Part shown: positions 39,333 to 57,231 of the stretch, one piece after another
Numbering within the stretch: the first letter of the stretch is position 1
How the letters are laid out: the number at the start of each line of letters is the position of its first letter
From: Candidatus Poribacteria bacterium
Lineage (GTDB): Bacteria > Poribacteria > WGA-4E > WGA-3G
Direction of reading: 5' to 3'
Length of the DNA: 57,369 nucleotides
Assembly: GCA_022822275.1 (NCBI GenBank)
Contig: JAJEBZ010000170.1
Coordinates: forward strand, 1 to 57,369
The notes under the pieces: generated by a model
Told to the model about the DNA's origin: nothing
Seen by the model: the letters and a program-made list of their open reading frames with translations, nothing else
Databases searched by the model: none
Made by a program: the position numbers and the translations under genes

Positions 39333-41213
39333 TCATTCAGGTGTGAGTTCCCATAACAGCACGGTGCCATCAAAACTCCCGCTTGCGAGCGTTTTACCAT
39401 CCGGACTGAACACTACGCTGCTAACACGAGCTCTATGTCCTGTCAATGTCAAGAGATGTGTACCTGTTTGCACATCCCATAAACGAATGGTATTGTCCCA
39501 ACTTCCACTGGCAAGTACCTTTCCTTTCGGACTGAATACAACACTACCTATATTATTCGTATGTCCTGTCAATACACTAATAGATGCTCCCGTTTGTACA
39601 TCCCACAAACGCACAGTATCGTCCCAACTCCCACTGGCAAGTGTCTTTCCATCCGGACTAAAGGCAACACTCGTGACTCTATCACTATGTTCAGTCAATT
39701 CATGCAATGATTCCCCTGTCTGCACATCCCACAAACGCACAGTATCGTCCCAACTCCCACTGGCAAGTGTCTTTCCATCCGGACTGAAAACAACACTAAC
39801 AATTTCATGTGTATGCCCTGTGAGTGTTCTAATCGTTTTACCAGTCTGTATATTCCACAAAAGCAAGTTATTTTCAACACCTTGACTTGCGAGTATCTTT
39901 CCATCTGGACTGAATGCAATGCTCTCGATCCCATCCGTATCCTCTTTGAGTTTCTGAATAGATGTGCCTGTCTCAACATCCCATAGAAACACAGTGTCGT
40001 CATCGTCCGAATAACTTCCACTTGCAAGGGTTTTGCCATCCGGACTGAAAACAACACAAGAGACTTCCCACTTATGTCCTATCAACGTGTGAAGTAACTT
40101 CCCTGTTTGCACATCCCACAAATGCCCAGCTTTGTCCGAACTTCCACAACTCGCCAGTGTAGAACCATCCGAACTGATTGCTATATCCCTGATCCTACCC
40201 GTATATCCTGTCAGTTCCCGAAGATGCGCGCCTGTTTTCACGTCCCATAGACACACAGTTTCAGATATGCTTGCAGTTGCAAGGGTTTTGCCATCCGGGC
40301 TGAACACTATGCTGCAGGTATCATCTGTATGCATATTCAATACCCGTTGGGATTCACCGGTTTTCGTATCCCAAAAGCAAACCCTTTTATCCCAAACGCC
40401 TGCACTTGCAATTGTCTTACCATCCGGACTGAATACAACGTCTATAACTCCACCTGCCGTATGCCCTTTCAATGTTTGAAGAGATGCACCGGTTTCTGTA
40501 TCCCACAGTCGCACGGTTCTATCCCAACTTGTGCTTGCGATTAACTTGCCATCCGGACTAAACGCTACAGCCAAGAGATGCTTCTCATGTCCTGTGAGAG
40601 TTCTTAGAGATTTACCAGCCTGCACATCCCATAACCGGGCAGTTTTATCCCAACTGGCACTTGCAACTGTCTTGCCATCCGGACTAAACGCGACACTCCA
40701 AATCCTTTGTGTGTGTCCTGCAAGTGTCTGCAGAGACATTCCCGTCCGCACATCCCACAGACGGATAGTGTTGTCATCACTCCCACTTGCGATTGCTTTA
40801 CCATCAGGACTGAATACAACACTATTAACAGGAAAGGTATGTCCTTTCATCGTCAGAAGAGGTGTACCTGTTCGCACATCCCACAGACGAACGGTAGCGT
40901 CCCAACTTCCACTGGCAATTGTATATCCATCTGGACTGAATGCCACGCTTTTCACATCAGATGTATGCCCTGTAATTAGGTTCATTTCCTCTCCTGTCTG
41001 TGCGTCATAAATCCAAATACCGATACTACCTGCTACTGCCAAACGCTTCCCATCAGGGGAGTACGTTATTTCATTTATAGAACCTTTACCAAGACGTGCC
41101 TTCGCTCCATCGGGTAACCCCCATTGTGTATAGTCTTGGGCAAAGGTGTGTGGGATTAGAGGGAATATTGAAAGCCCAAAGGTTAAAACCGAAAACAATA
41201 TATAATTTACCAT
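39333..41213 (-). CDS. Secreted WD40-repeat protein (about 14 repeats)
   Basis: Signal peptide, WGLPDGAKARLGKG cap and GH...VxSVAFSPDGKTLASGSWDxTVRLWD repeats. Confidence 0.92.
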   Translation of the reverse strand: MVNYILFSVLTFGLSIFPLIPHTFAQDYTQWGLPDGAKARLGKGSINEITYSPDGKRLAVAGSIGIWIYDAQTGEEMNLITGHTSDVKSVAFSPDGYTIASGSWDATVRLWDVRTGTPLLTMKGHTFPVNSVVFSPDGKAIASGSDDNTIRLWDVRTGMSLQTLAGHTQRIWSVAFSPDGKTVASASWDKTARLWDVQAGKSLRTLTGHEKHLLAVAFSPDGKLIASTSWDRTVRLWDTETGASLQTLKGHTAGGVIDVVFSPDGKTIASAGVWDKRVCFWDTKTGESQRVLNMHTDDTCSIVFSPDGKTLATASISETVCLWDVKTGAHLRELTGYTGRIRDIAISSDGSTLASCGSSDKAGHLWDVQTGKLLHTLIGHKWEVSCVVFSPDGKTLASGSYSDDDDTVFLWDVETGTSIQKLKEDTDGIESIAFSPDGKILASQGVENNLLLWNIQTGKTIRTLTGHTHEIVSVVFSPDGKTLASGSWDDTVRLWDVQTGESLHELTEHSDRVTSVAFSPDGKTLASGSWDDTVRLWDVQTGASISVLTGHTNNIGSVVFSPKGKVLASGSWDNTIRLWDVQTGTHLLTLTGHRARVSSVVFSPDGKTLASGSFDGTVLLWELTPE

Positions 41214-41461
41214 AAAGTTTGTCCTTTTGAATTTGAGTGGTATACTGCGTTTCAAAATAGCGTATTTACAGTTACACAATTATGGATGCACAAATTGGTA
41301 TATATGGTAAATAATTATTTTAGTTGGTAAAGAGAAATGTTGGGTGTGTTTTAGAATCGCGGGTTATGTAGATTAGGAAGGACAAGCTGATATATTGCAG
41401 TACATAATTTTTTGTAGGTAAAAAGAAGGGATTCCCGCTTATCGAAATGTTGCATCAACAC

Positions 41462-43339
41462 CTAATCCACTGGTTCAGGCGTTAGCTCCCACAGCAGGAA
41501 GCTGCCGCCACGACTCCCGCTTGCGAGGGTCTTGCCGTCCGGACTGAAGACAACTGTATAAACCATCCTTGAATGTCCTTTCAACGTCCTAAGATGTGTG
41601 CCTGTTTGCCCGTCCCATAAACGCACATCAGTGTCTCTACCCGCACTTGCGAGTATCTTGCCATCCGGACTGAAGACAACGGACCATACACCATCTGTAT
41701 GTCCTGTTATTGTCCGCATGTGTTCTCCAGTCTGTGCATTCCAAAAACGGATCGTTTTATCATCACTTGAACTCACAAGGGTCTTGCCATCCGGTCTGAA
41801 GACAACACCAATAACCGACTTTGTATGTTCATTCAGTGTCCGTATAAGTTTTCCAGTCTGCACATTCCAAAAACGGATCGTTTTATCATCACTTGAACTC
41901 ACAAGGGTCTCGCCATCCGGACTGAACACTACGCTATTGATACTTTCCCTATGATCTGTCAATGTCAATAGGCGTTTTCCTGTCGCTACATCCCACAAAC
42001 GCACATCAGTGTCATTACTTCCGGTTACGAGTGTCTTACCATCGGGACTGAACGTAACACAATTGACAAAGTCACGATGCTCTGTCAGTATGTGTAGAAG
42101 TGTACCTGTCTTCACATCCCATAAACGTGCTGTTCTATCCCAACTTGAAGTTGCGAGGGTCTTGCCATCAGGACTAAACACAAGACCTACTACATCAGCT
42201 TTATGTCCTTTAAGTCGCAGGCGTTCTTCATCGGTTTGCGTATCAAACAGAGGAACAGTCTCATCCCAACCAGAACATGCTAACATTGATCCATCGGGAC
42301 TGAACGCAATGCTCCTGACGCAGAAGACGTGATCTGTGATTGTCTGACGTGATGTCCCAGTTTGCACATCCCACAGACGCACAGTACTATCACCACTCCC
42401 AGTTACCAATGTAGACCCATCCGGACTAAACGCAAGGCTTGTAACTTTTCTCGTATGTCCTTTTAGGACCTGAAGGGGTGTACCTGTCCGCGCGTCCCAC
42501 AAACGCAGGTCTGTGTCAAAGTCCATTGCAGTACTCACAAGAAATTCACCATCTGGACTAAATAGGACGTTAGTAATCCTTCCCGTATGCCCTATGATTG
42601 TACGAAGAGATTCACCTGTTTGCATATCCCACAAACGAATGGTTTTGTCCATACTCGAACTTGCAAGGGTCTTTCCATCTGGACTAAACGATACCCTACT
42701 CATAGCAGCTGTATGTTCTGTAAGCGTTTGAAGACATGTCCCGGTTTGCACGTCCCACAAACGCACAGTAGTATCCCAACTCGAACTTGCCAATATAGAC
42801 CCATCTGGACTGAACACAGCATAATTAACCCTGTCCGTATGACCTGTAAGTGTACAAATAATTTCACTTGTTTGCACATCCCACAGACAGATGGCATTGT
42901 CATCACCTGCACTTGCCAATATAGACCCACTTGGACTGAACACAACGTTATTTATACGACAGTTATGCTCGCTCAACGTCCGGATATGTGTGCCTGTTTG
43001 CACATCCCACAAACGGATGGTTCTGTCACCACTGGCACTTGCCAATATAGATCCGTCTGGACTGAAAGACACGGTAGTGACATCAAGTGTATGTCCTGTG
43101 AGTAGGTTAAGTGCTTTTGCCGTCTGTGCGTCGTATATCCAAATACCGATGGCACTTGCTACCGCTATAAGCTTTCCATCAGGGGAATATGCTATCTCAG
43201 GCGGATTTAGGACATCACTTATCCTGCCTTTGCCGAGACGTGCTATCACACCTGTGGGTAGATTCCATTGTGTGCAATCTTGGGAAACGGTGTTTGAGTC
43301 TAAAGTATGTAAAGAAATAGAGGGTTGTGTTTTTTTCAT
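41462..43339 (-). CDS. WD40-repeat protein (paralog without a clear signal peptide)
   Basis: WNLPTGVIARLGKG cap and about 14 WD40 repeats. Confidence 0.92.
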   Translation of the reverse strand: MKKTQPSISLHTLDSNTVSQDCTQWNLPTGVIARLGKGRISDVLNPPEIAYSPDGKLIAVASAIGIWIYDAQTAKALNLLTGHTLDVTTVSFSPDGSILASASGDRTIRLWDVQTGTHIRTLSEHNCRINNVVFSPSGSILASAGDDNAICLWDVQTSEIICTLTGHTDRVNYAVFSPDGSILASSSWDTTVRLWDVQTGTCLQTLTEHTAAMSRVSFSPDGKTLASSSMDKTIRLWDMQTGESLRTIIGHTGRITNVLFSPDGEFLVSTAMDFDTDLRLWDARTGTPLQVLKGHTRKVTSLAFSPDGSTLVTGSGDSTVRLWDVQTGTSRQTITDHVFCVRSIAFSPDGSMLACSGWDETVPLFDTQTDEERLRLKGHKADVVGLVFSPDGKTLATSSWDRTARLWDVKTGTLLHILTEHRDFVNCVTFSPDGKTLVTGSNDTDVRLWDVATGKRLLTLTDHRESINSVVFSPDGETLVSSSDDKTIRFWNVQTGKLIRTLNEHTKSVIGVVFRPDGKTLVSSSDDKTIRFWNAQTGEHMRTITGHTDGVWSVVFSPDGKILASAGRDTDVRLWDGQTGTHLRTLKGHSRMVYTVVFSPDGKTLASGSRGGSFLLWELTPEPVD

Positions 43340-45275: not shown

Positions 45276-45325
45276 TAGATATTAAGGACAGCACAATGAA
45301 TAGATATTAAGGACAGCACAATGAA
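45276..45325 (+). repeat. Exact 25-bp tandem duplication of the cmr1 RBS/start
   Basis: TAGATATTAAGGACAGCACAATGAA occurs twice. Confidence 0.9.
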
Positions 45326-46262
45326 AAAGACTGCGTTAAATCTTGAAACCGTTACGCCGATGTTTCTACACGGTCACGACAATACGATTCTTGAACTACG
45401 TCCCCCGCCCTTTAAAGCACTGTTTCGCTATTGGTGGCGGACTGTGCAGGATTGTAGTTGGAAATCGCTTCGAGAAAAAGAGACTAAGTTATTTGGCAGC
45501 ACAGATCGTAAAGCCCGGTTTTCAATTCGTATTTCAGGAACAACAAATTTGAAAATTATCCAGAAAAAACTGTTATCGCATAAAGGCGGCACTCCCATAG
45601 ATGCATTCGCAGCAGACCAGCCATTTGGGTTGCAACTGATTACAAAGAGCAAATCAGATGCTAAGTATTACAAACAGATTGCAAAACTCGGTTTTCTGCT
45701 TGGCGGTGTTGGCAACCGTTCACGTCGCGGATCTGGCTCAATTCGTGAAACATGCTGGAATTTCAAAAATATTTATGATATGCAAGATGAAGTTTTAAAG
45801 ACACTCAACACCGTAGCAAAAACTGATAGATTCCAGAAAAACAACAGTTTTAATATAAAAGGCAGAACCGTTGAGATTATTGAATCAAAATGGCGCACCA
45901 GCAATACTTCAGGTAATGCTATACATCATGTTAATCGCCAATATCCTGTAATTCGACGAATCTTTTTTGGAAAATTAACAAAAAATCTTGACGATCTATT
46001 AAAGGAAATCGGTAATAAAACCTCTGTTGCGAAGGCTCATAACAGAGATTTTACACTTGGAGATGGGAACCCACGTATGGCATCGCCTGTTGTCGTCAGA
46101 ATTCAGAAGATAGACAGTCAATACATACCGATTGTGACACAACTTTATCCAGTCTATCCCGAACTAAATCCTGACCGAGACGATATTCGTAAGATACCGA
46201 GTAACGCACCAATCAAGCAGCTGAAATTCATCAATGACATTATCAAATTGGAGATTCCATGA
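45321..46262 (+). CDS. cmr1: Type III-B CRISPR RAMP Cmr1
   Basis: LETVTPMF, ELRPPPFKALFRYWWR, LFGS, GGVGNRSRRGSG, RMASPV. Confidence 0.9.
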   Translation: MKKTALNLETVTPMFLHGHDNTILELRPPPFKALFRYWWRTVQDCSWKSLREKETKLFGSTDRKARFSIRISGTTNLKIIQKKLLSHKGGTPIDAFAADQPFGLQLITKSKSDAKYYKQIAKLGFLLGGVGNRSRRGSGSIRETCWNFKNIYDMQDEVLKTLNTVAKTDRFQKNNSFNIKGRTVEIIESKWRTSNTSGNAIHHVNRQYPVIRRIFFGKLTKNLDDLLKEIGNKTSVAKAHNRDFTLGDGNPRMASPVVVRIQKIDSQYIPIVTQLYPVYPELNPDRDDIRKIPSNAPIKQLKFINDIIKLEIP

Positions 46263-48196
46263 CTGAAAACCAACCAAAACGCCTCATGCTCATGTTCACG
46301 ATAGGTCCCGCGCAATCCTTCATTAAAGCTGCTCGAAAGACAGAAGATATGTGGATGGGCAGCTATATCTTGTCTTATCTTACCGCAACGGCAATGGAAA
46401 AGGTTAAAGGGGATGATGGTGTTGAAATAATCTATCCTGCTATTAAAGAACAATCACCATTTGAATTTTGGGAGAAACAAGACCCTACAACGCCTTCCAT
46501 CCCGAACCTCTTTTTAGCAATTGGAGATGATAATATTTCTCAAGATGATTTGGCTGAACGTGCAAAAGAAGCTGAGAGTGTAGTAAACAAAGTATTTAGG
46601 CAGATGGCAGAACGCGTGCTTGATAAGGCATTTGAAAAAAAATGGCGTAAAACTTATGTTGAAGATTTGTTCAAAAACCAGATCCCCGATTTCTTTGATG
46701 TCTATTGGGTGATTACACAGGAGCAACCGGATCAATCTTATGGAAAGTGGTATGAATACACCGCAAGTAGTCTCGCTGCAATCAAAAACTGCCGGGTATT
46801 TAAACCAATGGAAGAGATGGGACGAAAATGTTCACTTGATGGCACACGCGAAATTTTACATTTGGAAGAAAAAGAATCCATCAAACAAGCAATGAAATGG
46901 TGGGAGAATTTTGCCAGAAACTATCCAAGACATTGCCGACAAAAGGAAGCTCTTTGCGCTGTCTCGTTAACCAAACGGATGGGAAGGCATTACTTGGAAA
47001 ATTACTCCAGATTCAAAGACAAATTTAAAGATAAAAGTGACCGTCCGAAATTTCCATCAACTTCAGAGGTAGCAACAGCGGCATTCAAAGAACGGATCCT
47101 ATGCAGCATCCCCGCTTTTGAGACTTATCAAGATTTTTGCAAAGAAGTCAAGAAATTAAAAGCAACCAATGCGGGTATCCCAATTATTGATCCCTTACCG
47201 AAAATAAAATGTCCGATCCCGAATAATGTTGATGGTGAATGGCTTTATGAGGAAACTTACAATGACTCCTATCTCGAACGTTACTATGATATTGATGCGT
47301 CCAAACAAAGAGACCAAATTGAGCAGTGTAAGAAATTGCGGAAAAAACTTGTCGGGTTGGTTGAAGGCGAACCGGGCAAATACTATGCCGCTATCGCACT
47401 GGATGCCGATAACATGGGAGAGGTGAACCGTAAGGCTAAAGATAAGAAAGAACATGAAGCGAATAGCACGCAGCTAATTGAATTCACGAAAGATGCCCGC
47501 CGAATTGTTGAAGAGGAACATCTTGGCAAGTTGACTTATGCGGGAGGTGATGATCTTCTTGCACTCGCAAATCTCAGAGACTTATTGCCGATATTAAAGA
47601 AATTGCACAAAGCGTTTCCTGATGATCTCACAACTATTTCCGCTGGCGTGTGTATTGCCCATAACAAGATGCCACTTACAAATGTACTTGAACATGCACG
47701 GCGAATGGAAAAGAAAGCGAAAAAAGTAGATGGGAAGGATGCACTTGGGATTGCATTATTCAAGCATTCTGGTAACGTTAGCGAGACCGTGATGAAGTGG
47801 AGATATAACTCACAGAAAGTGCTGCAAGTTACCATGGACACAAATGGTGATTTCAAGACGAAGTCGGGATACGACGGTCTAAAAGTAATTCCTATCGGGA
47901 TGAAATTAGTCAAGTTGTTGCAAGACGATGAAGTCTCCAAAAATTTCTTATACGCTTTCCGTGATGGGGTTGCCAAATTAATAGATAAAGATGGAAAACT
48001 CATTAGTAAAGTGCCGCTTGTCCTTGTTGAGGTAGAGTTTAAGCGTCTCATTGAACGTGCATATAAGAGAGATGAAGTAAATCAAGCGACAATCCAAAAA
48101 ACTGCTGAATTGTTGCATTACATAAGTCCGAGACCTTTCAAGCATTTCCTCGGTTTCTTAGAAATCATTACTTTTATTGCAAGGGAGTCAAAATGA
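46259..48196 (+). CDS. cas10: Type III-B Cas10/Cmr2 (palm cyclase domain, no HD domain)
   Basis: IGPAQSFIKAARKTEDMWMGSYILS, CSLDG...LCAVSLTKR, FPST, YYAAIALDADNMG, YAGGDD, SAG. Confidence 0.95.
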   Translation: MTENQPKRLMLMFTIGPAQSFIKAARKTEDMWMGSYILSYLTATAMEKVKGDDGVEIIYPAIKEQSPFEFWEKQDPTTPSIPNLFLAIGDDNISQDDLAERAKEAESVVNKVFRQMAERVLDKAFEKKWRKTYVEDLFKNQIPDFFDVYWVITQEQPDQSYGKWYEYTASSLAAIKNCRVFKPMEEMGRKCSLDGTREILHLEEKESIKQAMKWWENFARNYPRHCRQKEALCAVSLTKRMGRHYLENYSRFKDKFKDKSDRPKFPSTSEVATAAFKERILCSIPAFETYQDFCKEVKKLKATNAGIPIIDPLPKIKCPIPNNVDGEWLYEETYNDSYLERYYDIDASKQRDQIEQCKKLRKKLVGLVEGEPGKYYAAIALDADNMGEVNRKAKDKKEHEANSTQLIEFTKDARRIVEEEHLGKLTYAGGDDLLALANLRDLLPILKKLHKAFPDDLTTISAGVCIAHNKMPLTNVLEHARRMEKKAKKVDGKDALGIALFKHSGNVSETVMKWRYNSQKVLQVTMDTNGDFKTKSGYDGLKVIPIGMKLVKLLQDDEVSKNFLYAFRDGVAKLIDKDGKLISKVPLVLVEVEFKRLIERAYKRDEVNQATIQKTAELLHYISPRPFKHFLGFLEIITFIARESK

Positions 48197-49338
48197 AACT
48201 ATTTCTACAACCTAACGACACCTTCTTTTTTCGTGACGGAAAGCCTTTTACAAAAGGAGAGCAATCGGAAGGATATTCAATTTTTCCGCCGCTCCCATCT
48301 ACAATCCTGGGTGCGTTGAGAACCGCCTACATTGCTGAACACGGTGATTTACCATCATTTTATGCTGGAAAAATGGTGGAGACTATTGGCACCCCAAACT
48401 CACTCGGATTTGTGCGTCTTAAAGGCGTTTTTCTCGCTGACAGGAATTCAGGCATTTATTACCCAATACCGCTCGATCTTGTTGTGAAAACATCTGTGAA
48501 AAAGGATGATAAAAATAGGTTATACCCACTTGAAGTATGTCCCAACAATGCTAATATGAGATCTAATGCTTCACTTAAACTTAAGTATCTTTTGAGATGG
48601 AATGGAAAAGAAGACGTTGAAGCTGAGACAAGTGGTAAGCTCAAACCGCTCTATATGCAGCAGTATTTATTGGGTGAAGATAGGCCTATTAGATTCAATT
48701 CGAATGAGGATTTTGTTTGTGATGAACCAAAGATCGGAATCCAACGAAGCCGCGAAACCTTAGCGTCTGAGGATAACATGTTGTATCGGATTAATATGTC
48801 GCGTTTTCAATCACGATATCGAGATATGTCTGAATTGGGATTTATTGCGGATTATGAATGTAATACCCTGTTACCGGATAATAAAGGGTTGTTACCGGAT
48901 AAAGGACTGTTGAAACTCGGTGGGGAAGGAAAAAGTTTTCTTTATGAGTCGAGTATTCATAACCCAAACCCTTTTCCAACAAAAAATGACGTAGATAAAC
49001 TTAAGAAAGCGATCAAAGATTCTGGTGGTTTCAAACTCTATTTTGCAACGCCTGCAATCTTTAAAGATGGGTGGTTACCAAAAACAAATTTAAAGTCAAT
49101 TGAATTTGTTACAGCAGCGGTTGGCAAACCGATTGCTATTGGTGGTTGGGATATGAAAAAGAATAAGCCCAAATCGACTCGGCGTGCCGTTCCTGCTGGG
49201 AGCGTCTACTATTTTAAGATACTCGACGGTTGTTGCGTAGACGAAATTATTAACACTTTTCACTATAAAAACATCAGCGACTATCAGGCAAAAGAGGGAT
49301 ACGGGCTCTGCTTTGTCGGTGTTGCTGAAGGAGTATAA
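48193..49338 (+). CDS. cmr3: Type III-B Cmr3
   Basis: PNDTFFFRDGKPF, PPLPSTILGALR, LGGEGK, GGWDM..NKPK...AVPAGSVYYF, GYG. Confidence 0.93.
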   Translation: MKLFLQPNDTFFFRDGKPFTKGEQSEGYSIFPPLPSTILGALRTAYIAEHGDLPSFYAGKMVETIGTPNSLGFVRLKGVFLADRNSGIYYPIPLDLVVKTSVKKDDKNRLYPLEVCPNNANMRSNASLKLKYLLRWNGKEDVEAETSGKLKPLYMQQYLLGEDRPIRFNSNEDFVCDEPKIGIQRSRETLASEDNMLYRINMSRFQSRYRDMSELGFIADYECNTLLPDNKGLLPDKGLLKLGGEGKSFLYESSIHNPNPFPTKNDVDKLKKAIKDSGGFKLYFATPAIFKDGWLPKTNLKSIEFVTAAVGKPIAIGGWDMKKNKPKSTRRAVPAGSVYYFKILDGCCVDEIINTFHYKNISDYQAKEGYGLCFVGVAEGV

Positions 49339-49340
49339 TC

Positions 49341-49952
49341 ATGACAGTTGTTATAACACCCGTTGGGACATCTCTCTTTACCAACGGGGGAAAGGAAAAT
49401 ACTACTATTTCCAATCTTTTTGCTGACATAGAAGATCTGGATGGAGACCAATGGAATCTCTATCCAACTGCAATCAATCTGCTCAGAACAGAAAGCGTGG
49501 ATTTTATCAACGAAAAACAGGAGTCTGCTGCTGCCGAGCTCCAGAGTAGCATGGCTATTCGCAGCCAACAAGGTCACAACATCACAGTTCGTCTTCTCGC
49601 CTCGGATACGGTCGCTTCAAGGTTAGCTGCAGAGATTTTACAGTCGAGTGCGGCAGCAGTTTTGGGTCCCCAATGCACTTTTGAATTTAATCCTGACACT
49701 GATGTAATTCAAGGGTTACAGGTTTTGTATCCTATGCAATTTCGGAATGACGGTATTCCGAATTTAAAAGATCGTCTGAATACAATTTACTACAATACCT
49801 CTGAAAACGAGATAAATCTTGCTATAAATATTACCGCTGGGTACGGGGCGTTCGTTCCACCTATGATGCTATTTTCACAAGGTATTGGAGGAATTCCACT
49901 ATACTACCACTTCAAGGATTCTCACATGGTCCTTGATCTTTCTAAAATTTGA
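49341..49952 (+). CDS. APE2256/Sso1393-family CARF-only CRISPR-associated protein (candidate ring nuclease or cOA sensor)
   Basis: VITPVGTSLFTN, AEL, LLASDT..S.LAAEIL, IQGLQV, NITAGYG; lies inside the cmr operon. Confidence 0.75.
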   Translation: MTVVITPVGTSLFTNGGKENTTISNLFADIEDLDGDQWNLYPTAINLLRTESVDFINEKQESAAAELQSSMAIRSQQGHNITVRLLASDTVASRLAAEILQSSAAAVLGPQCTFEFNPDTDVIQGLQVLYPMQFRNDGIPNLKDRLNTIYYNTSENEINLAINITAGYGAFVPPMMLFSQGIGGIPLYYHFKDSHMVLDLSKI

Positions 49953-49964
49953 GGATAAACCAAA

Positions 49965-50987
49965 ATGTTCAAACAAGCAAAACCCCTATTTCTAATCGTA
50001 GAAACGCCGCTCCATGCTGGCAGCGGCAGTGACCTCGGCATTGTTGATTTGCCGATACAACGCGAAAAACACACGGATTACCCGAAAATAGAAGCATCCG
50101 GACTAAAAGGCAGTATCCGTGAAATTTTTGATACAAAAGCAAAGAGTGGAGAAATAAAAAAGGACGAAATTAAACTCGTGTTCGGTCCAGAAGAAGGAGA
50201 CCTGCACGCGGGTGCCTTAGGATTCACGGATGCACGACTCTTACTCTTTCCAGTGAAGTCTGTCAAAGGCGTGTTTGCATGGGTAACATGCCCAGCAGTT
50301 CTGGAACGTCTCAAACACGATCTCTCCATTTGTAAGGAAAGTATTAATTTTGATATTCCTGGTGCCAATACAATTCCAAATGAAAATAAGTGCGATCTGA
50401 TTGTGAAGGACAATAAAATTGTCCTTGAAGAGTACACATTTCCTGTCACACCTAACAACGAATGTAATGAAGTCGCCAATTGGATTGCAGACAACGTTCT
50501 ACCAGCAGATGTTCCAAGTTACGATTATTGGCAAAAGAAAATGAAAAAGGACATCGTTGTGTTGAGCGATGACGATTTCCGTGATTTCGTTATGCTCTCA
50601 ACAGAAGTTATCGCCCGAACCAAGATTGATAATAAGAAAGGCACAGTTGTAGATGGTGCACTATGGTATGAAGAATACCTACCAACCGATTCAATTCTTT
50701 ATTCACTTGCGTTGACGACACCTTTATTCATAAAACCAGAAGGAAATACCGATGAAGAAAAAGAGACGGATGAGAAGAAGAAAAAAGGACAATTCTATGT
50801 TGGGAAAGTAGATAACAAAAATCAACTTGAGGCTGAGAAGGTAATGAAATTCTTTGCGGATGGATTACCAGACATCATTCAAATTGGCGGCAATGCAACC
50901 GTTGGCAAAGGAATAGTCCGGACAAACGTTTATCAACAGGAAGGAGGAAACAATGGCACAGGAAGTGACGACACTCAAGGGAATTGA
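49965..50987 (+). CDS. cmr4: Type III-B Cmr4
   Basis: TPLHAGSG, DLPIQRE, SGLKG, DARLLLFPV.S, LWYEEYLP, QIGGNATVGKG. Confidence 0.95.
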   Translation: MFKQAKPLFLIVETPLHAGSGSDLGIVDLPIQREKHTDYPKIEASGLKGSIREIFDTKAKSGEIKKDEIKLVFGPEEGDLHAGALGFTDARLLLFPVKSVKGVFAWVTCPAVLERLKHDLSICKESINFDIPGANTIPNENKCDLIVKDNKIVLEEYTFPVTPNNECNEVANWIADNVLPADVPSYDYWQKKMKKDIVVLSDDDFRDFVMLSTEVIARTKIDNKKGTVVDGALWYEEYLPTDSILYSLALTTPLFIKPEGNTDEEKETDEKKKKGQFYVGKVDNKNQLEAEKVMKFFADGLPDIIQIGGNATVGKGIVRTNVYQQEGGNNGTGSDDTQGN

Positions 50988-51327
50988 ACAGGGACGCGCC
51001 ACTTATGCTTTCAAGGCGGTGCAAGCGGTTAGTCCTTCTCTGCAAAAAGAATACAAATCCTCAGCAAAGAAACTCCCTGTTTTGATAAAAACGAATGGAC
51101 TTGGACAATCCCTTGCATTCATCAAGAAAAGGAACGCTTACGATAAATTATACGAGCAAATTGGAGACTGGCTCCAAAAAGAAGATGATAAGCAATTGGT
51201 TCCGAAAGGCGAACTCGTTGAACAAGTTATTAAACTCAAATCACCTGTTTATCGGCAAGCCACCGTCGAAACACTCGCGCTACTCAATTGGATCCGCCGT
51301 TTTGTGGATGGACTTATTGAAGACTAA
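50953..51327 (+). CDS. cmr5: Type III-B Cmr5 small subunit
   Basis: EQGRA..A, YKS..KKLP.LI.TNGLGQ.LAF, AT.E.LA.L.W.RRF. Confidence 0.92.
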   Translation: MAQEVTTLKGIEQGRATYAFKAVQAVSPSLQKEYKSSAKKLPVLIKTNGLGQSLAFIKKRNAYDKLYEQIGDWLQKEDDKQLVPKGELVEQVIKLKSPVYRQATVETLALLNWIRRFVDGLIED

Positions 51328-51340
51328 GAAAGGACAACCG

Positions 51341-52438
51341 ATGCCTAATTACCACCCATCTGACACTGTTAGTATAGTGCAATTCAATCAAATTGATAAC
51401 TTCGCCCTACGTTATCAACATTTCTTGCGGATTGATAGACCAAGGAACAATGACCCAAAATACAAAGTTAACTTTCAGCGTTCTGCTGATAGACTGGAGA
51501 GTTCTTCCATGAAATTGGTTACGCAATTGAGAGAACGACAAAAAGCACAACTCCAGCAATTCGCTCAGCAAGGCATCAAACTTTACTGCGTCAATGCAAC
51601 CGTTGATTGGCGGTTAATAGTCGGTCTCGGCGGTGAACATGTGCAAGAAACGAACATGACACTTCATCACATCTACGGCATCCCATATATACCCGGTAGT
51701 GCCGTAAAAGGTGTCCTGCGGCATTGGTGGTTAGAGAAAGACTTTTCTGATAAGAACGGCAAAATTTCTGAAGAAAAAGCCCTGAAGGATTCCGTTTTTC
51801 TCTCAATTTTCGGCAGCCAAGAACAGCGCGGGGAGGTGCGATTCCTTGATGCCTATCCTGAGAAAGTCCAGTTTGCAACCGACATCATGAATCCTCACTT
51901 TGGTGATTATTACAGTGGTACAAAACCACCAACAGACAATCAAAATCCAGTACCTATCAATTTTCTAACAGTAGAGAAAACTGTTTTTCGATTTGTTTTC
52001 TTGGCGAAGGATCAGGATCCTCTTGAAAAAATAGAAGAGCGGTTTGAAGAGGCGTTGGAATTAAAGGGTGTTGGTGCGAAAACTGCTGTCGGCTACGGGT
52101 ATTTCCGCGATTTAAAAGACAAGACTGATACTATCACTGCCGAACTCAAACAACAACAGGAAGCAGCTGAAAAACAACGAGAAGAGAAGCGGTTAGCAAG
52201 TCTCTCTCCTATTGAACAACTTACTGAAGAAGTGAAAAGTCTCACCAACAGTCAAGTGGACGAAGAGCGTGCTACCGAAATTTACAACAAACAACTTCCA
52301 TCGCTTGAAGAAGATGACAAACAATTAATTGCGCGGGCATTGAAAGCTTATTGGCAGCGCATCAATAAGTGGAAAGACGGTTCCGACAAACAAAGACAAA
52401 AAGTGATAGCGGTTAAGGCGATTTTAGAGGAAAATTGA
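51341..52438 (+). CDS. cmr6: Type III-B Cmr6 with C-terminal helical extension
   Basis: RLIVGLG, HHIYGIPYIPGSAVKG, FLDAYP, DIMNPH, P.PI.FL, GVGAKTAVGYG; AGGA RBS before ATG 51341. Confidence 0.93.
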   Translation: MPNYHPSDTVSIVQFNQIDNFALRYQHFLRIDRPRNNDPKYKVNFQRSADRLESSSMKLVTQLRERQKAQLQQFAQQGIKLYCVNATVDWRLIVGLGGEHVQETNMTLHHIYGIPYIPGSAVKGVLRHWWLEKDFSDKNGKISEEKALKDSVFLSIFGSQEQRGEVRFLDAYPEKVQFATDIMNPHFGDYYSGTKPPTDNQNPVPINFLTVEKTVFRFVFLAKDQDPLEKIEERFEEALELKGVGAKTAVGYGYFRDLKDKTDTITAELKQQQEAAEKQREEKRLASLSPIEQLTEEVKSLTNSQVDEERATEIYNKQLPSLEEDDKQLIARALKAYWQRINKWKDGSDKQRQKVIAVKAILEEN

Positions 52439-52459
52439 ATTCCCAATAAAGTCATAGTC

Positions 52460-53428
52460 ATGCTCAAAAACTTCCAATTCACCCACTACCGCCTCACCTA
52501 CACCGTCCAAGAACCGCTCAAGATGCCGCCCTACAAAGGCAACATCTTCCGCAGCCGATTCGGATACCTACTCCACCACATCGCATGCATCGGCGACACA
52601 GAAGAATCGTGCCAAGAAAAGTGTCAATACCCTGACCGATGCATATATTCAAAATGCTTTGAAACGCCTGTTCCTAAAGATAGCCCTATCCTACGAGGAC
52701 AACCGTATGCACCACATCCTTTCATCCTCCAACCACCCCGCACATCTAAGATGGAATATATCCCAGGCGACACCTTCACCTGCCACCTGCTTCTCATCGG
52801 AGAAGCAATCAACTTATTGCCCTGGATAGTGTTTGCTTTTTATGAGATGGGTAAAAGGCGTATCGGACTACAAGGCAAACGCGGGCAATGCCAATTGGAA
52901 AAAGTAGAAAGCCTCTCCGCACATGATAACCAGCAATCACAGACGATTTACACAGCAGAAACCGAGATGTTGACAGATGACGGACTGATCCTCCGACTTG
53001 ACGATGTGATGGACAACGCACCTGATGTCACCGATACGATTGAACTTGAGTTTATCACACCTACCAGCATCAAGGTGGATGGAAAATGGACAAAAGATTT
53101 GACGTTTGAACATCTTATCCGCAACCTGCTTAGGCGTATCCGATTTTTGAGTTACTTTCATTGTGGTGAGGATTTAGATGTAGACGCGCATGCGTTGATT
53201 GATGCTGCACGTGCTATTACACACGAACCCCATTTCCATTGGCTCAAGTCCAATCGCTACTCTTATCGTGCGGAGAGTTCTATTCCAATGGACGGGTTTA
53301 TTGGGAAAGTTCATTATTCAGGGCAGTTTGAACCGTTTTTACCGTTCATCTATCTTGGCGAGTATTTGCATATCGGGCATCACACAGCATTTGGGTTTGG
53401 ACAATATCGTATCACTTCACCGTCTTAA
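52460..53428 (+). CDS. cas6: CRISPR pre-crRNA processing endoribonuclease Cas6 (Cys-cluster type)
   Basis: C..C...C..CIYS..FE, PHPF, FITP and C-terminal G-loop GEYLHIGHHTAFGFGQY. Confidence 0.88.
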   Translation: MLKNFQFTHYRLTYTVQEPLKMPPYKGNIFRSRFGYLLHHIACIGDTEESCQEKCQYPDRCIYSKCFETPVPKDSPILRGQPYAPHPFILQPPRTSKMEYIPGDTFTCHLLLIGEAINLLPWIVFAFYEMGKRRIGLQGKRGQCQLEKVESLSAHDNQQSQTIYTAETEMLTDDGLILRLDDVMDNAPDVTDTIELEFITPTSIKVDGKWTKDLTFEHLIRNLLRRIRFLSYFHCGEDLDVDAHALIDAARAITHEPHFHWLKSNRYSYRAESSIPMDGFIGKVHYSGQFEPFLPFIYLGEYLHIGHHTAFGFGQYRITSPS

Positions 53429-53612
53429 AAAGATTCTCAAACCAATCAAACAGTGCCGACTGTGTCACTATACCGAGACAGACAAGAATCACGAAAATAA
53501 TGGAAACCCAAATCAGCAGCTTAACTGCACGCTTAGCAATACCAATGATAAGGATTATCGCAAATATAGCGGAAACAATCAAAAAGGGTGGGGAACTAAT
53601 GAATTCTGGCAT
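53412..53612 (-). CDS. Small two-TM membrane protein (66 aa), antisense between cas6 and cas2
   Basis: Two hydrophobic helices separated by KRAVK. Overlaps the cas6 3' end by 17 bp. Confidence 0.6.
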   Translation of the reverse strand: MPEFISSPPFLIVSAIFAIILIIGIAKRAVKLLIWVSIIFVILVCLGIVTQSALFDWFENLFKTVK

Positions 53613-53678
53613 ATCAAAAGTATACCATTTATACAGTAAAAATGAAACATCTCACTAAACTAAATTAGAGGTAATACA

Positions 53679-53954
53679 ATGTTATATGTTATTTCTTATG
53701 ACATCCCAGATGACCGAAGACGAAACCAACTCGCGAAAGCACTAAAAGGATATGGCACCCGCGTCCAGTACAGTGTATTTGAAGCACATCTGAACAAAGC
53801 AGAATTTGAAGAACTGAAACAGGAAGTTGCTAATGTTATAGATTCTTCAGAAGATTCAGTACGCTATTACGCGCTATGCAAAACTTGCGCAAACCAAATT
53901 GAGGTGCCTGCCGTTGGCGACTTAACCTCTGTCCCCAACACAATAGTTGTTTGA
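53679..53954 (+). CDS. cas2: CRISPR-associated endonuclease Cas2
   Basis: YVISYDIPDDRRR, YGTRVQYSVFE, DSVRYY.LC..C; GAGG RBS. Confidence 0.95.
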   Translation: MLYVISYDIPDDRRRNQLAKALKGYGTRVQYSVFEAHLNKAEFEELKQEVANVIDSSEDSVRYYALCKTCANQIEVPAVGDLTSVPNTIVV

Positions 53955-53967
53955 AGCATTGGCAGCC

Positions 53968-54052
53968 CCCCTTCCACTCTTCCACCCTCCCCCCTTCCAA
54001 TCTTCCCTCTGTTCCTTCCACTCTTCCAATCTTCCCTCCTTCCAATCTTTCC
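53968..54052. repeat. Pyrimidine-rich degenerate octamer tandem repeat (CTTCCA[AC]T)
   Basis: cttccact cttccacc...cttccaat repeated between convergent cas2 and the ankyrin gene. Confidence 0.7.
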
Positions 54053-54100
54053 GTTTAATTCCCTGCTCTCGGAAACAACGGGATAAATATGAGCCCCGCG

Positions 54101-56005
54101 CTACTTGGATTGACTTTGCATTATTTCTACTACTTCATCAAGTTTGTGTTTTTCCGCGGCATACAGTGGGGTTCTTCCTTTAGCATTCTGAATATTGGGG
54201 TCCGCCCCATGATTTAGCAATAGCAATATGTAATCGACATCTACATAAGAGTTACCAAAAATTGCCCGCATAAAACGTTTTTCTACTCCATACCAATGTA
54301 TTGTTTCGTGGAGTGGCGTATTGCCACCAGCGTCCTGTGCGTTGACATCCGCACCCCGAGATAGTAGGACTTTTGTTGTCCCTTGATACGCCTTTTTGGC
54401 AGCGATGTGTAGCGGGGTATATCCATAATTGCCCGGGATATTGATATCCGCGCCATGATCCAGTAAGATATTTGTGACCAATATCGTCTCACCTCTAACT
54501 GCGTCGTGCAATGGTGTATCACAATTGTTGTTCTCAATCTGGATGTCCACCCCGTTTTTTATCAACACTTTAAGTGCATCGACGTTGCCGTGTCTTGCTG
54601 CGAGTTGCAGAGGCGTGTTTCCACCCTTGTCCATTGCATGAACATTCGCGTTATATTTGAGCAATAATTCAATTGTCTCAGAAGTAGCTCTACGTGCTGC
54701 TTTGTGTAATGGTGTTTGCCCATCAATATCCTTTACCCCTACTTTTGCGCCGAGTTTTATGAGTGTGTCTATTGCTATATAGCCGTTTTTAGTGGCTTCG
54801 GCTGCATTATGCAGTGGAAATGTTTCATAGATATTCTGTGCGTGGATATCTGCCCCGTTTCTGATGAGGATATCCATTATTTCAGGGTCACCGTGCCACA
54901 TTGCAAAATGTAGTGGAGTATCCGACTCGTCATCTTTACTTTTGACTTGTGCACCGCATAGTATCAAGTGTCGGACCATCGGATAGGCATCATGGTGTCT
55001 TACGGCAAAATGCAGTGGCGTACTGCCAAAATAATCCTTAGCATTTATCGCCGCACCATTGTCCATAAGTGTTTTTGCTATTCTCTGGGCATTCTTCTTA
55101 GCTGCGATGTGTAGCGGTGTTTTCTTAAGACTATTTTGTATATTTATCTGTGCACTGTATTGTATAAGGAGTACTACAAGGTAATATGCATTTGGGTATC
55201 CAGCCAGAAAATGTAATGGTGTTTCATTATCAGAGTTTTTAACGTTTATCGCCGCGCCATTTTCTATAAGTATCTTTGCGGTTTTTTGCGCGTTGTTTTT
55301 TGCTGCGATATGTAGTGGTGTATTAAAACGATAATTATCTACTATGTTGACCTCTGCGCCGTGCTGTATGAGGAGCTCTACAAGGTGATATGCACTTGGG
55401 TATCCAGCCAGAAAATGTAATGGTGTTTCATTATCAGAGTTCTTAACGTTTATCGCCGCGCCATTTTCTATAAGTATCTGTGCCGTTTCCTGTGCGTTTT
55501 TCTCTGCGGCGATGTGTAGTGGCGTTTCATTCCGATTATTCTTAACGTTTGTCTCAGCACGATTTTCTATGAGTATCTGTACCGTTTCCTGTGCGTTTTT
55601 CTCTGCGGCGATGTGTAGTGGCGTTCTGCTATATTTACCTTGTATGTTTATTTGTGCGCCGTGCTGTATGAGGAGATCTACAAGGTGATATGCATTTGGG
55701 TATTCAGCCAGAAGATGTAATGGTGTTTCATTATCAGAGTTTTTAACGTTTATCGCCGCGCCATTTTCTATAAGTATCTTTACTGTTTCTTGTCTGTTGA
55801 ACTCTGCTGCGATGTGTAGCGGTGTATTGCCTCCATAGTCTACTTCGTTGACATCTGCGCCGCTTGCAATGTGTTTTTGAATTGACTCAACAGCGTAAAA
55901 CTTTATTATGGCTTGGTGCAAGGGGGGTGTGGTTCTTTCTTGGCTGACTGTTCCCCTTCTTCCGTGCCTTCTATTTCTGCGATTGGCGTTATTTTGATCG
56001 TCCAT
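54101..56005 (-). CDS. Ankyrin-repeat protein (about 17 repeats)
   Basis: TPLHxAA...LIxNGAxINxKN repeats; AAGGAGG RBS. Confidence 0.93.
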   Translation of the reverse strand: MDDQNNANRRNRRHGRRGTVSQERTTPPLHQAIIKFYAVESIQKHIASGADVNEVDYGGNTPLHIAAEFNRQETVKILIENGAAINVKNSDNETPLHLLAEYPNAYHLVDLLIQHGAQINIQGKYSRTPLHIAAEKNAQETVQILIENRAETNVKNNRNETPLHIAAEKNAQETAQILIENGAAINVKNSDNETPLHFLAGYPSAYHLVELLIQHGAEVNIVDNYRFNTPLHIAAKNNAQKTAKILIENGAAINVKNSDNETPLHFLAGYPNAYYLVVLLIQYSAQINIQNSLKKTPLHIAAKKNAQRIAKTLMDNGAAINAKDYFGSTPLHFAVRHHDAYPMVRHLILCGAQVKSKDDESDTPLHFAMWHGDPEIMDILIRNGADIHAQNIYETFPLHNAAEATKNGYIAIDTLIKLGAKVGVKDIDGQTPLHKAARRATSETIELLLKYNANVHAMDKGGNTPLQLAARHGNVDALKVLIKNGVDIQIENNNCDTPLHDAVRGETILVTNILLDHGADINIPGNYGYTPLHIAAKKAYQGTTKVLLSRGADVNAQDAGGNTPLHETIHWYGVEKRFMRAIFGNSYVDVDYILLLLNHGADPNIQNAKGRTPLYAAEKHKLDEVVEIMQSQSK

Positions 56006-56014
56006 GTTTCCTCC

Positions 56015-56419
56015 TTATTCCAATATGATTGTTCTACCAACATCTTCTATATTTGGAGCGCGACCATGTTCGGAGGCCCACCGACTTTCAGAGACAACAC
56101 ATAACTTTGTTCCGTTGTCGTAACTGTAGTCATCTATCATAAGGGCGATAAAATCCGTTGACCATGCGATGATGGGCACGCCTTCCGGCGGATCGTATTC
56201 ATTTCCACTCTGACAAAGATAGCAGTTTAAACTCGAGATAGTTGAGAACCTTCTGAGGAGGCGGAGGGGAATGCTGTAACCTACTATTTCTTTGCCAAGA
56301 TTTGCGGCATCTGGTGTGATATGTTCATCAAAGAGTTGTTGAAATCTGTCTGCAAGTGATGGCATTTTATCTGTTTCGCAACTGGTTTGCTCTGGCGTAC
56401 GTCGTCTGGTGTTGCGCAT
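56015..56419 (-). CDS. Hypothetical protein, probably co-transcribed with the ankyrin gene
   Basis: AGGAGG RBS; 9-bp gap to the ankyrin start; CYLC motif. Confidence 0.6.
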   Translation of the reverse strand: MRNTRRRTPEQTSCETDKMPSLADRFQQLFDEHITPDAANLGKEIVGYSIPLRLLRRFSTISSLNCYLCQSGNEYDPPEGVPIIAWSTDFIALMIDDYSYDNGTKLCVVSESRWASEHGRAPNIEDVGRTIILE

Positions 56420-56532
56420 GTTATATTTATCCTCCTATGACGTGATATTGTAGTTGGGGGACAAGTTGTAGTGTGTGTTTCGGGTGTTAATTATAGCAAA
56501 TGTTTGGGGGTGTCAAGTTTTTTGTCTAAATC

Positions 56533-56827
56533 GGGTGTGTAAAGTTTTTGTACTAACTTCCCGCGAACTATTGTAGGGCAGGAGTTCTATGCCCCGCTAC
56601 ATGATTGTCATTTTATGGATTTTCATGTTGTGCTCTTCAGTCCCGCCAGAAGCCATACGCGCTTCTGGCGTTGATTTGGTAGGGACGCTATGTTTATTCT
56701 TCTATGCCGTTCCTACGGAACTCAAGACGGGGGAAACATTGTTTCTATAAACATAGCGTCCCTACGGGACTAAAGACACCACTCTACAAAACGAACTGCC
56801 TCTTTTGTACAATAACTTTACACACCC
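56533..56827. mobile_element. Intact non-autonomous MITE (family B), 295 bp, 9-bp target-site duplication
   Basis: 21-bp terminal inverted repeats GGGTGTGTAAAGTT(T/A)TTGTAC. GTCTAAATC is duplicated at 56524-56532 and 56828-56836. Confidence 0.9.
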
Positions 56828-56955
56828 GTCTAAATCTCAGATGACGTATGAGTTCAGATTAACCATTAGCCTTCAGTTGTCAACCATCAACGAATATGTC
56901 TCTTGAAATAAACCACTTTGCTGACTGCTAATAGCCGATTGCTGATTGCCAATAC

Positions 56956-57210
56956 ATTCCCTTCAAACGGGAAGGACTTTCCGAACTGAAAATGAAATTT
57001 TTATTTTTGAATCTGATAGTTTTGTTTCAATTCCCTTCAAACGGGAAGGACTTTCCGAACCCACTACCAAATTAAGAGGTATCTTCTAATGACAATCAGT
57101 TTCAATTCCCTTCAAACGGGAAGGACTTTCCGAACTGTATCCAACTCGGTAAGAAAATGTATGAAAGCATGTAGTTTCAATTCCCTTCAAACGGGAAGGA
57201 CTTTCCGAAC
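56956..57210 (-). CRISPR. CRISPR array: 4 repeats (first truncated), 3 spacers (37, 38, 38 bp); 37-bp repeat GTTCGGAAAGTCCTTCCCGTTTGAAGGGAATTGAAAC
   Basis: Repeats at 56956-56986 (partial), 57024-57060, 57099-57135 and 57174-57210. The ATTGAAAC 3' end and the degenerate left repeat indicate minus-strand transcription. Confidence 0.96.
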
Positions 57211-57231
57211 TTGCAAACAGTGTCACTGAAC

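Follow-up and report, generated by a model that had tools for sequence, protein, structure and literature searches.

A type III-B CRISPR-Cas locus of a Poribacteria-like sponge symbiont that appears to retain the sensor half of a Cami1-type effector

How does a type III CRISPR-Cas system with a signal-producing Cas10 work when its own locus holds no complete effector to read the signal? The question is raised by a 57,369-nt contig of Candidatus Poribacteria bacterium (JAJEBZ010000170.1, assembly GCA_022822275.1; contig C116 of our set), which is hereafter called the window. It belongs to a draft genome of 4.53 Mb in 320 contigs that is 96.4% complete by marker genes, and the region at its right end carries a type III-B (Cmr) CRISPR-Cas system; the organism is a Poribacteria-like sponge symbiont. 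The initial annotation of this region described a complete set of cmr genes with a cyclase-type Cas10, no recognizable effector and no cas1, and proposed that either the effector lies elsewhere or signalling runs through a non-canonical module built from four extra genes, namely those for a CARF-only protein, a 66-aa membrane protein, an ankyrin-repeat protein and a 134-aa protein. That description proved accurate for the contig and incomplete for the genome, in which cas1 and an intact CARF effector lie on other contigs. We propose, with a probability of roughly 60%, that the locus as a whole is best explained as a Cmr locus in which the built-in Cami1-type effector has been beheaded and the signal is read in trans.

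Profile searches against Pfam and NCBIfam, together with a repeat search, bore out the gene inventory of cmr1 to cmr6, cas6, cas2, an array and the four extra genes (Table 1). Cas10/Cmr2 and the proteins Cmr1, Cmr3, Cmr4, Cmr5 and Cmr6 all scored at or far above the NCBIfam or Pfam cut-offs. The description of Cas10 as a cyclase with GGDD and without an HD domain also held: its N-terminus starts at once with the Cmr2_N domain, neither Pfam nor NCBIfam gave an HD match in it, and GGDD can be read in the translation of its palm2 domain. The translation of cmr4 contains an N-terminal G-I-V-D-L-P stretch, which we take to be the catalytic Asp motif. Because the cmr6 open reading frame (ORF) overlaps cmr5, the true start of cmr6 is uncertain.

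The effector question turns on the 203-aa CARF gene that sits between cmr3 and cmr4. A CARF7-type sensor domain was recognized in its product by PADLOC, by the Pfam family Cas_APE2256 and by a Foldseek match to the Cami1 structures 8PHB and 8PHJ. Against the PADLOC profile CARF7--CARF_RelE (PDLC01936), the protein aligns strongly (E 6e-44) and solely with positions 1–186 of 356, and with the match ending there, the C-terminal RelE-family nuclease domain is missing. The gene stops 12 nt before the start of cmr4, and a search with 17 C-terminal queries found no trace of the lost RelE half anywhere in the genome (best E 0.077).

What the gene once was can be read from 20 related loci of public genomes, drawn from Poribacteria, Latescibacterota, Caldilineaceae and others. 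A CARF homologue follows cmr3 in all 20 and is 330–503 aa long in 19 of them, and cmr4 comes next, with one ORF intervening in three loci (L013, L026 and L027). The long forms of L012 and L017 match the CARF_RelE profile over positions 1–335 and 1–341 of 356, and the C-terminal domain conserved in the 17 aligned long forms is the part that the window's protein lacks. By family profile the best solved relative is Cami1. These loci show that the ancestral effector of this Cmr type was a CARF-RelE gene embedded in the operon, in the slot that separates cmr3 from cmr4. Because its profile match covers half of the family profile, its full-length relatives occupy the same slot and the conserved C-terminus is missing, the 203-aa gene is the sensor half of a Cami1-type effector without the linker and the RelE half. 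The gene is indeed CARF-only, as first described; it is a Cami1-type gene minus its nuclease rather than a component of a new effector design.

Cami1 itself, said to have been described by Mogila et al. in 2023, is reportedly a ribosome-dependent CARF-RelE RNase; the PDB titles give it as the apo form (8PHB) and on the 70S ribosome (8PHJ). The window's protein resembles the CARF half of Cami1 by the PADLOC profile and by its structural model, and besides the relatives in the same operon slot there is a full-length member of the family on contig C127 of the same genome, described below. It differs from Cami1 in having neither the linker nor the RelE nuclease, and therefore cannot be an RNase effector, and in having Gly where Cami1, like the Latescibacterota and Caldilineaceae forms, has the Lys of a G-G-x-K motif.

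The loss appears to be old. Within the searched length range of 111 to 356 aa, the relatives of the CARF protein in the protein collection (E ≤ 0.001) fall into 32 clusters besides the query and are mostly about 200 aa long; a tree built by a quick method from 48 CARF domains included 28 rows shorter than 260 aa and 20 longer rows. The window's protein and 21 other short rows form one clade with a Shimodaira–Hasegawa-like approximate likelihood ratio test support of 99 (22 of the 28 short rows), nested among the Poribacteria long forms, while the remaining six short rows, possibly fragments, are scattered among the long forms. In a 30-sequence family alignment, members as little as about 40% identical to the window's protein still keep the length and motifs, and the family motifs are invariant across the short clade. 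Since this 22-member clade is well supported and conserved in both length and motifs, the truncation is most readily read as a single old loss followed by retention, not as recent decay. Within the window's genus, the full-length embedded form was present in 4 of 40 genomes and the short form in the window's genome only. A search of viral sequences returned no relatives of the 203-aa protein. An IS1595 insertion considered as the cause of the truncation in L013 was rejected, because L013 lies within the old short clade and the insertion must therefore be later than the truncation.

Retention of a sensor without its nuclease raises the question of what the stump does. Its structure was predicted with a predicted local distance difference test score (pLDDT) of 91.6, and the best Foldseek matches were the ring nucleases Sis0811 and Sso1393 (template modelling scores 0.77–0.80), followed by Cami1 (0.63–0.69), so that at 203 aa it is a small stand-alone CARF protein with the Crn1 fold. 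We mapped its residues through an alignment to Sis0811, using the contacts to cyclic tetra-adenylate (cA4) named in PMC8643638. Seven of the eight contact positions are kept, four with identical and three with similar residues: S12, N16, D75, T98, T100, S103 and Y191 of Sis0811 correspond to S11, N15, Q68, S88, T90, S93 and F191 of the stump, and all seven are invariant or nearly so in the family alignment. Ser11, which aligns with the catalytic S12, is shared by no fewer than 90% of the family members. The catalytic Lys, on the other hand, is absent: Gly169 aligns with K169 of Sis0811 (K168 of Sso1393), and this position reads G or A in nearly all 30 family rows and K in four. The Latescibacterota and Caldilineaceae forms and Cami1 have the Lys. 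In Sis0811, the substitution K169G abolishes cA4 cleavage, according to the same paper (PMC8643638). The stump probably still binds cA4 and does not cleave it in the Crn1 manner, and binding without cleavage would make it a buffer rather than an enzyme.

These same residues bear on the alternative that the 203-aa protein is an active, stand-alone Crn1-like ring nuclease derived from Cami1, degrading cA4 made by either type III complex in the cell. Its closest structural matches are ring nucleases and the catalytic Ser position is kept; PMC12409355 moreover reports ring nuclease activity for Cami1 and ring nucleases in 31 effector-less loci, and the protein has a weak match to the NCBIfam 'CRISPR system ring nuclease' family (E 2e-4, far below cut-off). 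Set against this is the Gly at the very position where its introduction leaves cA4 uncut, and the prevalence of G or A there across the family, and we consider an active ring nuclease somewhat unlikely. Relative to the Crn1 family (Sso2081, Sso1393 and Sis0811; PMC8643638), the stump is likewise a stand-alone CARF7 protein of less than 250 aa in a type III locus, with its best fold match, its conserved Ser and its identical or similar cA4 contacts in common with that family; it differs in having Gly in place of the Lys that is essential in Sis0811, in having no C-terminal winged helix-turn-helix domain and, by the tree, in descending from bacterial CARF-RelE genes rather than from the crenarchaeal family.

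If the stump is not the effector, the signal would have to be read by another protein, and the genome offers one. It holds exactly two Cas10 genes, one in the window and one on contig C127, where a Csm-type locus adjoins a type I module with cas1, cas2 and cas4. The C127 Cas10 (785 aa) has both an HD domain and GGDD, Csm2-5-like genes lie alongside, and a 428-aa ORF is a full-length CARF-RelE protein, matching the PADLOC profile PDLC01934 over positions 2–358 of 359 (E 3e-134). The reported absence of a recognizable effector thus describes contig C116 and not the genome, and the option that the effector lies elsewhere is supported. No Csx1_HEPN, Cas02710 or Card1 match above cut-off was found genome-wide, in searches that did not extend to other effector families such as NucC, Cam1, CorA and Csx23. 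A SAVED gene as the missing effector was considered and rejected: the sole SAVED protein, on C255, belongs to an operon of a cyclic oligonucleotide-based anti-phage signalling system with a CD-NTase, an E2-like protein and a SAVED-HNH effector (L010:10601-13688). A cNMP-binding SpoIIE phosphatase was also observed near this operon.

The arrangement has precedent. Hoikkala, Graham & White (2024; PMC11229360) count 133 cyclase-positive loci that have a nuclease-deficient Cas10 and no effector, report effector-less cyclase loci to be 2.57 times likelier in genomes with several type III loci, and propose inter-locus signalling. The window's locus fits this published picture, sharing with the loci described there an HD-less cyclase Cas10, no intact effector within the locus and a second type III locus that has one; it differs in that the sensor half of its former effector still fills the effector slot. 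In the case of L013, the second short-form locus that we examined, the genome likewise encodes a full-length CARF7 effector outside the locus, one of the CARF_DUF2103 type. As a separate observation, the gene for that protein (L044:31-1341) directly follows a TnpB/Cas12f-like gene.

The reported lack of cas1 is also true of contig C116 and not of the genome. The array in the window has repeats of about 37 nt, of which the first is degenerate (85% identity to the others). About 18 nt past the last repeat begins the end of a multi-copy insertion sequence (IS) element, which fills the last 140 nt of the window. Stretches of 139–141 nt of this element recur with 100% identity at the ends of C105, C117, C97 and C319, and 116 nt recur with 96.6% identity at the end of C19, where the copy encodes a DDE_3 transposase with HTH_32/HTH_23 domains and is accordingly of the IS630 type. 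The window's repeat was found on one other contig only, C139, as 20 identical copies at the contig end. Next to these come some 400 nt of leader-like DNA without coding sequence and then the genes for a 470-aa reverse transcriptase (RT; RVT_1, E 4e-35) and a 355-aa Cas1 (E 8e-92), which make up an RT-associated adaptation module. Related genomes carry such genes within a single locus: cas6, the 66-aa gene, cas2, two further genes, RT and cas1 in L013, and cas6, cas2, array, RT and cas1 in L037. Based on repeat identity, we infer that the window's locus has adaptation genes and that its array was split by an IS630 copy and continues on C139. Judging from the degenerate repeat at the left edge in the window and from the leader on C139, transcription of the array probably runs along the window's minus strand; the sole Rfam matches of the repeat, to CRISPR-DR54 on the plus strand, were sub-threshold and too weak to decide the strand.

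We propose that the locus works as follows. Because its GGDD is intact, the HD-less cyclase-type Cas10 is predicted to make cyclic oligoadenylate once the Cmr complex binds target RNA. The embedded CARF-RelE gene was cut down in a single ancient event that removed the linker and the RelE half and left the 203-aa CARF protein, which probably binds cA4 as a dimer and would no longer be an effector but would buffer the signal or slowly switch it off. Reading of the signal would instead take place in trans by the intact CARF-RelE protein of the C127 Csm locus, and Cmr4 would additionally cut target RNA directly. A simpler account would dispense with signalling altogether, immunity consisting of target-RNA cutting by Cmr4, with the cyclase output unused and the stump a slowly decaying relic. 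The intact cmr4 with its strong family match, and a stump that has neither an output domain nor the Lys, would suit such an account, but a decaying relic would not be expected to form a deep, 22-member short clade in which length is conserved and the ligand-site residues are invariant, and the intact GGDD and the presence of an intact cA4-type effector in the genome also speak against it; we regard it as decidedly unlikely.

Several points weigh against our proposed explanation as a whole. The assembly does not join C116 to C139, and the sequence at the start of C139 is a spacer, where the other end of the IS element would be expected. Among the 22 members of the short clade, only the window's and that of L013 have a known genomic context. 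The change from Lys to Gly is also found in full-length Poribacteria forms, and thus says nothing specific about the stump, and other CARF nucleases use other residues (PMC8643638), so that the stump may yet have ring nuclease activity. The effector searches covered Cas_APE2256, SAVED, Csx1_HEPN, Cas02710 and Card1 in a draft genome from which other effectors could be missing because they are unassembled. Finally, the proposed working does not account for the conserved ankyrin pair and the membrane gene beside the locus.

The membrane gene, whose 66-aa product has two predicted hydrophobic helices, follows cas6 on the opposite strand in five loci (the window, L013, L015, L021 and L043). The ORF is 66 codons long in each of four orthologues, which differ from one another chiefly at third codon positions (17/5/36 differences at positions 1/2/3 in one example), and this equal length and codon-position pattern argue that the ORF is a real gene. 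Its family comprises 37 clusters in the protein collection and has no Pfam domain. The gene occurs with both short and long CARF forms, and is therefore not a partner specific to the stump. PMC11229360 describes Cam3, a membrane protein with six helices and a soluble domain that is always found downstream of Cami1. The window's protein is likewise a membrane protein that travels with Cami1-type Cmr loci; it differs from Cam3 as described there in having 66 residues and two helices, and its gene lies after cas6 on the other strand and not after the CARF gene.

The ankyrin-repeat gene forms a pair with the 134-aa gene, which it follows in all six genomes that hold the pair (the window's and five others). 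Searches with the 134-aa protein located its gene in 4 of the 121 genomes sampled across the phylum. Within the window's genus, 6 of 40 genomes have it, counting the window's own, and it was absent from the 89 sampled genomes of other genera of the phylum. Its family consists of 15 clusters at 54–76% identity, with no relatives in JGI metagenome contigs or viral contigs.

On the bolder option of the initial annotation, the extra genes would themselves form a non-canonical effector module. A check on their co-occurrence with type III loci in relatives was positive: the 66-aa gene adjoins cas6 in four relatives, and the pair adjoins type III or CRISPR parts in six of six genomes, in layouts that differ. 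It lies after cas2 and before the array in the window, divergent from the cmr1 of a different Cmr set (43–60% identity) in L035, divergent from a III-D-type Cas10 in L042, beside a small array in L036, after RT-cas1 and an array in L037, and next to cas6, between the 66-aa gene and a cas1 fragment, in L043. A Cas10 gene lies within 15 kb of the pair in four of the six genomes. L035 and L042 have about 295 nt in common upstream of the pair and then diverge abruptly, and ankyrin ORFs are scarce in the window's genome (four in all). Linkage of the pair to type III or CRISPR parts exceeds chance. The six genomes are close kin from one genus, however, and kinship together with a conserved chromosomal site may explain the linkage; moreover, none of the 20 loci retrieved through the CARF gene contains the pair, and the pair persists in one genome without Cas10 (G122) and in another whose only Cas10 is 4 Mb away (G044).

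The proteins themselves give the module little to build on. Pfam, NCBIfam and PADLOC revealed no CARF, SAVED or other sensor signature in either member of the pair, and nothing ties the pair or the 66-aa gene to the sensing of cyclic oligoadenylate. For the 134-aa protein the predicted structure is poor (pLDDT 57.9), and no fold in the PDB matched it in Foldseek at E ≤ 0.001; a SUKH-like pattern considered for this protein was dropped as unsupported by the poor model and the absence of a fold match. Ankyrin proteins are, furthermore, a known eukaryote-like feature of sponge symbionts. A literature search on ankyrin proteins with type III CRISPR had no relevant paper among those listed. We consider an effector module of this kind unlikely, and regard the pair as a lead worth following rather than as the effector. 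A combined account, in which the stump is a cleavage-deficient, cA4-binding signal sponge or adaptor that sets the threshold of the alarm and the pair, which in this genus is found next to three different type III subtypes, forms a novel accessory or output module of type III systems, perhaps together with the 66-aa protein, seems to us quite improbable.

Upstream of the 134-aa gene lies a strong promoter-like site, a TTGACA-15 nt-TGnTATAAT stretch that is kept in the window, L035 and L042 and that in the latter two falls within the 295 nt they have in common; the promoter scan did not list it because of its 15-nt spacer. In the same region of the window (56521-56840), an inverted repeat of about 20 nt flanks about 270 nt upstream of the 134-aa gene, which could be a small inserted element, and one arm of the repeat overlaps the conserved promoter-like region.

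Table 1 Features of the type III-B locus and its surroundings in the window, with strand and supporting evidence.
Feature	Position	Strand	Evidence
cmr1, 313 aa	45321..46262	+	RAMPs PF03787 E 2e-11; TIGR01894 Cmr1 E 3e-10
cas10/cmr2, 645 aa	46259..48196	+	Cmr2_N, Cas10 palm2 and TIGR02577 matches; GGDD
cmr3, 381 aa	48193..49338	+	Cas_Cmr3 E 5e-61
CARF gene, 203 aa, N-terminal half of a CARF-RelE (Cami1-family) gene	49341..49952	+	Pfam Cas_APE2256; PADLOC PDLC01936
cmr4, 340 aa	49965..50987	+	TIGR02580 E 7e-73
cmr5, 124 aa	50953..51327	+	Cas_Cmr5 E 2e-33
cmr6, ORF 447 aa	51095..52438	+	TIGR01898 E 2e-49, residues 171-337
cas6, 322 aa	52460..53428	+	CRISPR_Cas6 E 7e-20
66-aa protein, two hydrophobic helices	53412..53612	-	66-codon ORF kept beside cas6 in relatives
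cas2, 91 aa	53679..53954	+	CRISPR_Cas2 E 1e-26
Ankyrin-repeat protein, 634 aa, second gene of the pair	54101..56005	-	Ank families over nearly the whole length
134-aa protein, first gene of the pair	56015..56419	-	No Pfam, NCBIfam or PADLOC match
CRISPR array, 4 repeats, 3 spacers, trailer end left	56949..57211	- (probable)	Repeat search
End of IS630-type element inside the array; contig end	57230..57369		Multi-copy element

Two large tandem WD40-repeat genes and a Na/Ca exchanger gene lie upstream of cmr1 (39333-43339, minus strand). WD40 and Na/Ca-exchanger neighbours also stand beside the cmr locus in L014, L015, L016 and L043, and their recurrence in relatives indicates that the cmr locus occupies a conserved chromosomal site.

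Other observations concern the loci used for comparison and the contigs linked to the window. The Cmr operon of L035 is followed by a 192-aa ORF that matches the CARF part only of Csx1 profiles (positions 7-157 of 441; L035:714-2723, minus strand); it abuts an in-frame 476-aa DUF4145 ORF, and the two could be a split or nonsense-interrupted CARF effector. A few kilobases from RT-cas1 on C139 lies a gene for an AAA_15/AAA_21 ATPase with DUF3696 (L006:10224-13265), after which come two genes without a family; the best PADLOC matches of the ATPase are NsnB, PDC-M55A and HEC-03B, and it is probably part of another defence system. On C19, an ORF in which a C-terminal portion of DarT is joined to a Macro domain (L046:1623-2471, minus strand) adjoins an IS630 copy.

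The locus is best described as one of a known kind, a Cami1-bearing Cmr system that probably signals in trans, and what is new is that its effector is reduced to a conserved, Lys-less CARF protein; the residual novelty lies in the CARF-only clade, the ankyrin pair and the membrane gene. The case also carries a caution for draft genomes, in which calls of 'no cas1' or 'no effector' can be artefacts of contig ends. For the biology of type III systems, it points to a route by which effector-less loci may arise, with the effector gene beheaded rather than absent and its sensor half kept for a long time. The symbiont would provide a natural test case for two questions, whether a Lys-less bare CARF protein can buffer cA4 for the host that encodes it and whether Cmr and Csm loci within a single cell exchange signals, and the ankyrin pair beside type III loci offers a lead in uncultured sponge symbionts.

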